Shown here: one piece after another, positions 52,401-53,656 of the stretch | Position numbering within the stretch: position 1 is the first letter of the stretch | Layout of the letters: every line of letters begins with the position of its first letter | DNA from: Escherichia coli | GTDB taxonomy: Bacteria > Pseudomonadota > Gammaproteobacteria > Enterobacterales > Enterobacteriaceae | DNA length: 64,000 nt | Direction: 5' to 3' (one strand) | Assembly: GCF_003991155.1 (NCBI RefSeq) | Contig: NZ_CP031294.1 | Notes under the pieces: generated by a model | What the model was told of the DNA's origin: nothing | What the model saw: only the letters and a program-made list of their open reading frames with translations | Databases searched by the model: none | Program-made: the position numbers and the translations under genes

Positions 52401-53656
52401 GCGAGCTGAGTTATCTGGAAAAACTGCTGGATGGGGCTGAGGTTGAGTGGGTAGCATTAAATAAATTAGCAACTTTTTTAAAAGGGAAGTCTTTACCTAA
52501 AGAAAAAATAACTCCAGATGGCAATAGATATTGTATTCATTACGGTGAGCTTTTCACTCATTATGGTCCCATAATTGACAAAGTATGCTCAAAAACAAAC
52601 CAAGCAATCAATGAGTCAATTCTATCTGAAAAAAATGATGTTCTAATGCCAACGTCAGACGTTACACCAAGAGGTTTGGCTACAGCTAGTTGCATTCAAG
52701 AAAGTGGCGTTATTTTAGGCGGCGATATTTTGATTATTAGATGCTCTGGTGTTGATGGTAGATATCTAAGTAATTTCATAATAAATAACAAAAAAAAGAT
52801 ATTGCAAATGGTTAAAGGTTCTACTGTTTATCATTTGTATGCTAAAGATATAGGTAAATTACTTATCCCCATCCCTTGCCCCAACAACCCGGAAAAGTCG
52901 CTGGCTATCCAGTCTGAAATCGTCAGGATTCTGGATAAATTTACTGCACTTACCGCTGAGCTTACCGCTGAGCTTACCGCTGAGCTTAGCATGCGTAAAA
53001 AACAATACAACTACTATCGCGACCAGTTGTTGAGTTTTAAAGAGGGTGAGGTTGAGTGGAAAGCTTTGGGGGAAATTGGTGAAGTTCGTATGTGTAAACG
53101 AATCCTAAAATCACAAACATCTTCTGAGGGAGAGATTCCATTTTATAAAATTGGGACATTTGGTAAGGAACCCGATTCCTATATATCTAGAAAACTATTT
53201 AATGAATTTAAAGAAAAATATAGTTATCCTAAAGTTGGCGAAGTATTGATTTCTGCCAGTGGGACCATCGGCAGGACTGTTATATTTGATGGTAGGGAAT
53301 CATATTTCCAGGATAGCAATATTGTCTGGATTGAAAATAATGAAAAAATAGTTTTAAATAAATATTTATTCTATTTCTATAAAATAGCAAAATGGGGAAT
53401 ATCTGAAGGTGGAACTATTAAAAGACTTTATAATGATAACTTAAGAAAACTTATGATACCAGTACCATTTCCTGATTCTCCTGAAAGATCGCTAGTTGAA
53501 CAACAAAAAATAGTGAAATTACTGGATAAATTTGATGCTTTGACCAATTCCATCACCGAAGGTCTTCCGCGTGAAATCGAGTTGCGCCAGAAACAATACG
53601 AGTACTATCGTGATTTACTGTTCAGTTTTCCCAAACCTGAAACTATCAGTAACTAA
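52397..53656 (+). CDS. hsdS: Type I restriction-modification specificity subunit
   Basis: Two target-recognition domains with conserved central ([14 protein letters not shown]) and C-terminal ([19 protein letters not shown]) regions; overlaps hsdM stop. Confidence 0.9.
52949..52984 (+). repeat. 12-bp tandem repeat CTTACCGCTGAG x3 encoding (LTAE)x3 in the hsdS central conserved region
   Basis: Read directly from DNA. Confidence 0.9.

Follow-up and report, generated by a model that had tools for sequence, protein, structure and literature searches.

A third TAEL repeat in the hsdS gene of an intact Type IC restriction-modification operon on an SSU5-like phage-plasmid of Escherichia coli

In the Type I restriction-modification operon described here, the hsdS gene carries a 12-bp unit three times in tandem, which raises the question whether this operon changes its DNA specificity by gaining and losing repeats and, if so, whether it does so as a programmed switch. 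In the EcoR124 family the repeat encodes the tetrapeptide TAEL; it is part of helix D1 in an antiparallel coiled coil, which determines how far apart the two target recognition domains (TRDs) of HsdS are held (PMC3874165). Two copies correspond to the recognition sequence GAA N6 RTCG in EcoR124I and three copies to GAA N7 RTCG in EcoR124II (PMC3874165; PMC10644984). In hybrids of EcoR124 and EcoDXXI with altered repeat number the spacer shifted as predicted, and EcoDXXI and EcoprrI themselves have three TAEL copies (PMC3874165). In addition, deletion of one TAEL led to the restriction of different T5-like phages (PMC10644984). The stretch of E. coli DNA that was analyzed, 64 kb in length, is called the window in the following. 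The original prediction saw in it an EcoR124-like operon which is expected to switch specificity by repeat gain or loss.

Our analysis confirmed an intact restriction-modification operon of Type IC (EcoR124 family). The open reading frames and their translations bear out the predicted order hsdM-hsdS-hsdR and the 1038 residues of HsdR, with hsdM and hsdS overlapping by four bases and hsdR following after a short gap of 121 bp (Table 1). HsdM matched the EcoR124 M protein (7bst_D) over residues 1-519 with 1150.9 bits, the next-best M subunit in the PDB reaching 331 bits, and it scored 650.8 bits with TIGR00497, the cutoff of which is 242.75. HsdR matched HsdR of EcoR124I (2w00_A) over residues 1-1038 with 2273.7 bits, and HsdS matched the PADLOC model Specificity_I PDLC03077 over residues 1-419 with 489.6 bits. 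Both hsdM and hsdR scored well above the NCBIfam cutoffs, and PADLOC called all three Type I components. The window HsdS is identical to that of the RefSeq WP_094310829.1 loci, and the start of the hsdM homologue is placed 6 bp later in RefSeq. The full-length kinship of HsdM and HsdR to the EcoR124 subunits, together with the Type IC arrangement of HsdS, i.e. three conserved regions with the TAEL repeats in the central one, supports the family of the operon as it had been proposed. Classically, membership in the family is defined by complementation between subunits or by antibodies that cross-react with EcoR124 (PMC3874165). Within the operon, the sole coding substitution compared to NZ_OW849379.1 is E774Q in HsdR (position 56097, codon 774), which lies in the C-terminal helical domain and is private to the window, as nine of nine other Type IC loci have E at this place; E774Q is absent from the text of PMC5248579.

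HsdS could be aligned to its counterpart in EcoR124 (7bst_A) in three blocks only, namely residues 1-28, 153-228 and about 365-419. Within them the two proteins are near-identical, and the sole gap is one TAEL, the 7bst_A chain containing two copies and the window HsdS three. Besides the extra TAEL, the central conserved region shows three mismatches to EcoR124 HsdS. The C-terminal region of hsdS is an internal duplication of the central one at a spacing of 591 nt. The TRDs are a different matter. Searched alone against the PDB, TRD1 found no match even at E<=1, and TRD2 gave a weak generic match at the level of the fold to 7bst_A (E 0.0027) and to 1yf2; by these PDB searches, neither TRD is homologous to those of EcoR124I/II. 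Since the two have no relation to the TRDs of EcoR124, GAA and RTCG are not the half-sites here, and the absolute length of the spacer cannot be read from the sequence. The likeness to EcoR124 that had been proposed therefore holds for the repeat and the family, but not for the motif GAA N7 RTCG. Unrelated TRDs had been named as evidence against the family assignment itself; this test was mis-posed, since membership in the family does not depend on the TRDs. An attempt to derive the recognition motif was given up, as the searches with the TRDs alone were uninformative and the RefSeq accessions of both the 2-copy and the 3-copy protein led to no paper in a full-text literature search.

The repeat itself is exactly where it had been predicted. 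Three copies of the unit CTTACCGCTGAG follow one another head to tail with zero mismatches, in frame within the 419-aa hsdS reading frame, and encode (L)TAEL three times in the central conserved helix. Tandem Repeats Finder reported the tract at 52949-52988 with period 12, 3.3 copies, 100% matches and a score of 80, the additional 0.3 copy being the CTTA that follows the third unit. By our arithmetic the chance of a perfect 36-nt triple repeat is 4^-24 per position or about 2e-10 per window, so that a chance origin within 64 kb is not to be expected. At the DNA level the unit is the 12-bp TAEL unit of EcoR124I/II, as judged by comparison with primers in PMC10644984. A related observation was made at the 3' end of hsdM (52289-52315), where an imperfect 12-bp double, GCTGAGCTGAAT in 1.9 copies, encodes IAELNAEL and is 83% like the hsdS unit.

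Table 1. Coordinates of the operon, the repeat and further features in the window
Feature	Position	Strand	Basis or remark
Accessory segment hot + hsdM + hsdS + hsdR	50182..56955		Insertion in SSU5-like backbone
hsdM, 520 aa, intact	50838..52400	+	4-bp overlap (ATGA) with hsdS; matches to 7bst_D and TIGR00497
hsdS, 419 aa, intact	52397..53656	+	Match to 7bst_A, E 4.7e-69; PADLOC
TRD1 (about aa 21-152)	52457..52852	+	Unaligned to 7bst_A; unrelated to EcoR124 TRD1
Central conserved region, helix D1 of coiled coil, holds the repeat	52853..53071	+	Alignment to 7bst_A
12-bp unit CTTACCGCTGAG, three copies	52949..52984	+	Tandem Repeats Finder; comparison with 2-copy relatives
TRD2 (about aa 226-359)	53072..53473	+	Weak generic TRD-fold alignment only
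C-terminal conserved region, helix D2	53474..53653	+	Near-identical to EcoR124 HsdS C-terminus
Hairpin 1, 8-bp stem GACCGGAT/ATCCGGTC, 9-nt loop	53672..53696	+	Folding, covariation
Hairpin 2, inverted repeat GCCGGAAG-N14-CTTCCGGC	53720..53749	+	Conservation
hsdR, 1038 aa, intact	53778..56894	+	Match to 2w00_A; TIGR00348, 765.9 bits

The gap between hsdS and hsdR contains no open reading frame and no prrC-like gene, and in this respect does not resemble an EcoprrI-type locus. Two hairpins had been predicted in it at 53679-53745, and both are present at slightly different coordinates (Table 1); the folded gap had a z value of -3.24 compared to shuffled sequences. Among five divergent Type IC loci, three stem pairs of hairpin 1 are kept through two-sided changes, and hairpin 2 has an invariant stem with a variable 14-nt loop; both are conserved features of Type IC gaps. 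Hairpin 1 is not a canonical terminator, as its T-run begins 14 nt past the stem, and hairpin 2 ends 28 nt before the hsdR start codon. Neither of them passed the terminator scan, and a search of operon and gap against Rfam gave no match. A separate hsdR promoter in this gap is a feature of the Type IC family. The promoter scan of the gap found one promoter-like site with 9 of 12 matches at 53684-53713 and no more sites than in shuffled sequences. A regulatory role towards hsdR had been suggested for the hairpins; as guesses, hairpin 1 might form a 3' end or stabiliser for hsdMS, and hairpin 2 might act on hsdR as an operator or 5' element.

The DNA of the window belongs to an SSU5-like phage-plasmid, and the record that matches it contains genes for terminase, portal, capsid and tape-measure proteins, nrdAB, thyA, metG and apbC as well as an IncFIB replicon. 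Homology to the hsd-less SSU5-like plasmid pMTY18780-3 ends at 50181 and restarts at 56956. At the matching place (4343-8706) pMTY18780-3 (locus L015) has four small genes and an intact gene for a 561-aa DUF4942 protein; hot-hsdM-hsdS-hsdR replaces these four genes and the C-terminal two-thirds of the DUF4942 methyltransferase-like gene. The end of the hsdMSR core (about 50739-56894) coincides exactly with the hsdR stop codon. The same unit can be found beside humD-hot-phd-doc on plasmids with P1-type neighbours (pdcB, phd-doc), in chromosomal islands and on plasmids of 64-68 kb. The segment is an accessory defence cassette which replaces part of a variable region in the SSU5-like backbone.

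Downstream of the cassette two further repeats were observed. The heptanucleotide CGATAGT (57371-57397) is present in 3.9 copies in the window and in 2.9 in NZ_OW849379.1. The repeat is situated within the 5' portion of a minus-strand reading frame (56953 to about 57429), which connects in frame to its upstream ATG only with one, four or seven full units. A frameshift-type phase-variable gene was considered here and rejected, as this reading frame is a 158-aa N-terminal remnant of the 561-aa DUF4942/DNA-methyltransferase gene (phrog_6263), which was cut off by the hsd cassette, and the intact genes have one full unit. In addition, a perfect 16-nt inverted repeat (ATAATAGCACCATTAA / TTAATGGTGCTATTAT) with a 12-nt loop is found at 57442-57485; read on the minus strand, it immediately precedes the start codon of the truncated DUF4942 gene, and it also lies downstream of the adjacent gene.

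How the third copy relates to the forms of this allele found elsewhere was seen from close relatives. Over all 64 kb, four SNPs and two indels separate the window from NZ_OW849379.1. Each indel is a copy change in a tandem repeat; one is the hsdS unit, with three copies in the window and two in NZ_OW849379.1, and the other is the CGATAGT tract. One CTTACCGCTGAG unit is likewise missing in pYUSHP6-3 and in about 35 other complete E. coli records. The hsdS genes of ten loci with this TRD pair (numbered with L below) were compared, and nine of the ten show zero substitutions, whereas between backgrounds the differences amount to 31-50 nt in hsdM and 53-145 nt in hsdR. Given this divergence, the absence of hsdS substitutions points to a recent spread of one S allele into several hsdM/hsdR backgrounds by recombination. 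Three of these backgrounds contain both the 2-copy and the 3-copy form (window/L003, L001/L002 and L008, L005/L009), each with zero to one SNP across the 6.1-kb operon, and a fourth (L004) has three copies. The simplest reading is that the change from two to three copies would have occurred independently at least three times. What look like independent events could also be the work of gene conversion between hsdS alleles in the same cell; as the flanks are identical, very short tracts of this kind would go unnoticed. In many other records the match is limited to TRD2 plus the C-terminus (query 472-1260) or to TRD1, a pattern that suggests shuffling of TRDs.

The two forms are far from equally common. 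The exact 2-copy protein (415 aa) was found in at least 1000 contigs, and the same collection contained no version of this protein with one, three, four or five copies. Complete E. coli genomes yielded about 35 records with the 1248-bp (2-copy) gene and three with the 1260-bp (3-copy) gene, one of them split by IS1; PLSDB added one further 3-copy plasmid, and IMG/VR contained five 2-copy and no 3-copy sequences. The 3-copy form of this allele is thus known from five records in all. All hsd reading frames are full length in four 3-copy loci (the window, L001, L004 and L005), and in L006 (NZ_CP029421.1, 6538-7305) an IS1 with duplicated AGGATTCTGG on its flanks splits hsdS at a point about 25 bp upstream of the TAEL tract. 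Given this disruption and the private E774Q of the window, restriction might be attenuated in 3-copy lineages.

Among Type IC genes in general, three copies are not unusual, which matches EcoDXXI and EcoprrI. Two copies had at first been taken as the norm of the family, as 115 of the 120 nearest protein-cluster representatives have two and three have a single one. This was corrected by an even sample of E. coli (60 of 1232 matching records), in which the copies implied by alignment spans, few of them checked by sequence, are three in about 25 records, two in 32, four in one and five in one, the last two being sequence-verified. Altogether, the TAEL copies of E. coli Type IC genes range from one to eight. 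All 11 loci with at least four copies (4, 5 or 8; L011, L012 and L017-L025, from E. coli chromosomes and one plasmid) are inactivated by insertion sequences in hsdM and/or hsdS, and the intact operons among the loci fetched have two or three copies only (Fisher p ~2e-4 for IS inactivation, at least four copies versus the 2-3-copy loci fetched). In a control, IS inactivation was also seen in three more loci, which have the same chromosomal allele with three copies. Six chromosomal loci with an identical IS3-hsdS junction have 3, 3, 4, 4, 4 and 5 copies, from which it follows that the TAEL tract keeps changing after the death of the gene. The idea that an enzyme with four or more copies is toxic and selects for its own inactivation is weakened by both the 3-copy control and the shared IS3 junction, and toxicity is not needed; an expansion after inactivation, under relaxed selection, fits the pattern better. 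Four TAEL repeats may relax spacer recognition, which was not used as evidence here. Our reading is that the tract is probably unstable by nature and that its length would be constrained by function. The hosts of both pYUSHP31-2 (3-copy) and pYUSHP6-3 (2-copy) contain in addition a 5-copy chromosomal Type IC locus (L020, NZ_CP097181.1; NZ_CP073768.1), which adjoins a tRNA-Leu gene and ahr; in SH21PTE31, the host of pYUSHP31-2 and the one whose locus was retrieved, its hsdM is broken by IS2.

Taken together, we consider it highly probable that the window carries an intact Type IC cassette whose third TAEL is a recent and recurrent product of slippage or unequal crossing-over, that its spacer is one base longer, and that copy changes are occasional mutations bounded by selection and not a programmed switch. 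Each TAEL would add about one helical turn to the first scaffold helix, and this turn would move the two TRDs apart by one base pair, a correspondence carried over by analogy from the literature on EcoR124I/II and their hybrids. The window enzyme is accordingly predicted to share both half-sites with the common allele and to have one more base in the spacer, and we infer that the 3-copy allele is expressed and active with its motif shifted in this way. The third copy would have arisen from the 2-copy allele by replication slippage or by unequal crossing-over within the 24-nt tandem; a unit of only 12 bp in two to three copies makes slippage, or an unequal exchange between sister copies, the likely origin. 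The change from two to three copies would be recent and would have happened more than once, on different replicons, and no programmed high-frequency switch would be needed for a copy change that occurs occasionally and is kept in bounds by selection. Possible, but in our view rather doubtful, is a further step in which the TAEL tract would be a selection-bounded contingency site, mutating readily but kept at two or three copies in working systems, so that a step between two and three copies would recur on mobile phage-plasmids with sufficient frequency to re-key, heritably, restriction along with the element's own methylation; the window would then be freshly switched, and E774Q might be an adjustment that attenuates restriction.

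Repeat gain and loss had originally been proposed as a means of switching, and copy number does vary among close relatives in the way expected of a phase-variable Type I system, both between sister replicons, which differ by one unit, and among the loci with the shared IS3 junction. In its strict form this would mean that the tract flips among two, three and four copies at high frequency within a clonal population, with mixed methylomes and possibly a phasevarion-type change of expression. The idea has been raised for tracts adjoining TAEL (PMC7383803), and it would be consistent with the range of one to eight copies in the family, with three, four and five copies behind one IS3 junction, with at least three backgrounds containing both forms of the allele and with the hsdS tract being one of only two indels in 64 kb. 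However, two to three units of 12 bp are far shorter than the classical hypermutable simple sequence repeats, each consensus assembly shows one state, and the 2-copy form dominates with at least 1000 contigs as compared to five 3-copy records, no 1- or 4-copy form of the allele having been found. These frequencies argue for rare events, and strict phase variation appears very unlikely to us; what stands of the proposal is the gain or loss of a unit between sister replicons.

The third copy might also have come from outside, by gene conversion or recombination with a co-resident Type IC hsdS that has three or more repeats. There are up to five to six matching places per E. coli genome, the host of pYUSHP31-2 has its 5-copy chromosomal locus, hsdS modules move between hsdM/hsdR backgrounds and TRDs are shuffled. 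The same 5-copy locus is, however, present in SH19PTE6, the host of the 2-copy sister, and the chromosomal alleles are about 91-93% identical over the 210-nt central region, yet zero flanking SNPs were co-transferred in four 3-copy backgrounds; moreover, the chromosomal allele begins with a CTTACCGCTGAA unit, whereas all units of the window are identical. An imported copy is therefore improbable, if slightly less so than strict phase variation. Just as unlikely as the latter, in our estimate, is an extra repeat that has no consequence at all, being a neutral or slightly deleterious passenger in a system that is unexpressed or deficient in restriction, or that contains an inactive 3-copy HsdS. 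The rarity of the 3-copy form, the IS1 disruption in one of its five records, the private E774Q and the very common IS inactivation of Type IC loci in E. coli would all fit such a passenger. Against it stand the three full-length reading frames in the window, L001, L004 and L005, the three copies that alignment spans imply for about 25 of the 59 E. coli Type IC genes sampled, the three TAEL copies that are the native state of the active EcoR124II, EcoDXXI and EcoprrI, and the hybrids in which the spacer rule proved independent of the TRDs (PMC3874165). Slippage or unequal crossing-over in the common 2-copy allele, bounded by selection, thus remains our preferred reading.

The classic evidence for the role of the repeat comes from the laboratory pair R124 and R124/3 and from engineered hybrids, whereas the one-unit change described here separates near-identical natural plasmids and phage-plasmids on several backgrounds. 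It offers ready-made isogenic pairs, pYUSHP31-2 versus pYUSHP6-3 and the window versus NZ_OW849379.1, which could be used to measure how a one-base change of the spacer re-keys the defence of mobile elements. The pattern of copy numbers further suggests that they are constrained in working systems and drift upward in dead ones. For annotation it means that Type IC S subunits which differ only in how many TAEL repeats they contain should not share one recognition sequence.

The mechanism is a known one, the textbook switch of specificity, and what is new is a rare spacer variant of a widespread allele. With EcoR124II (R124/3) as compared to EcoR124I, the operon shares the gene order, the full-length and near-self scores of HsdM and HsdR, the conserved regions of HsdS and the 12-bp unit, and in both cases three versus two TAEL copies are a polymorphism between otherwise identical genes. 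The EcoR124I/II pair differs in its TRDs and its carrier, which is plasmid R124 and not an SSU5-like phage-plasmid, and, unlike EcoR124I/II, the 2/3 pair of the window is found between natural isolates. EcoDXXI and EcoprrI, Type IC systems with N7 spacers, likewise have three TAEL copies natively and show the spacer rule with other TRDs; an EcoprrI-type locus, however, has the anticodon-nuclease gene prrC between hsdS and hsdR, a gene that is missing from the gap in the window. Short in-frame or homopolymer repeats that alter or diversify specificity are also found in hsdS of NgoAV and in the hsdS tandem repeats of Mycoplasma pneumoniae, but NgoAV and similar systems work through frameshifts that truncate HsdS or through longer variable tracts, whereas in the window one in-frame 12-bp unit would change nothing but the length of a helix.
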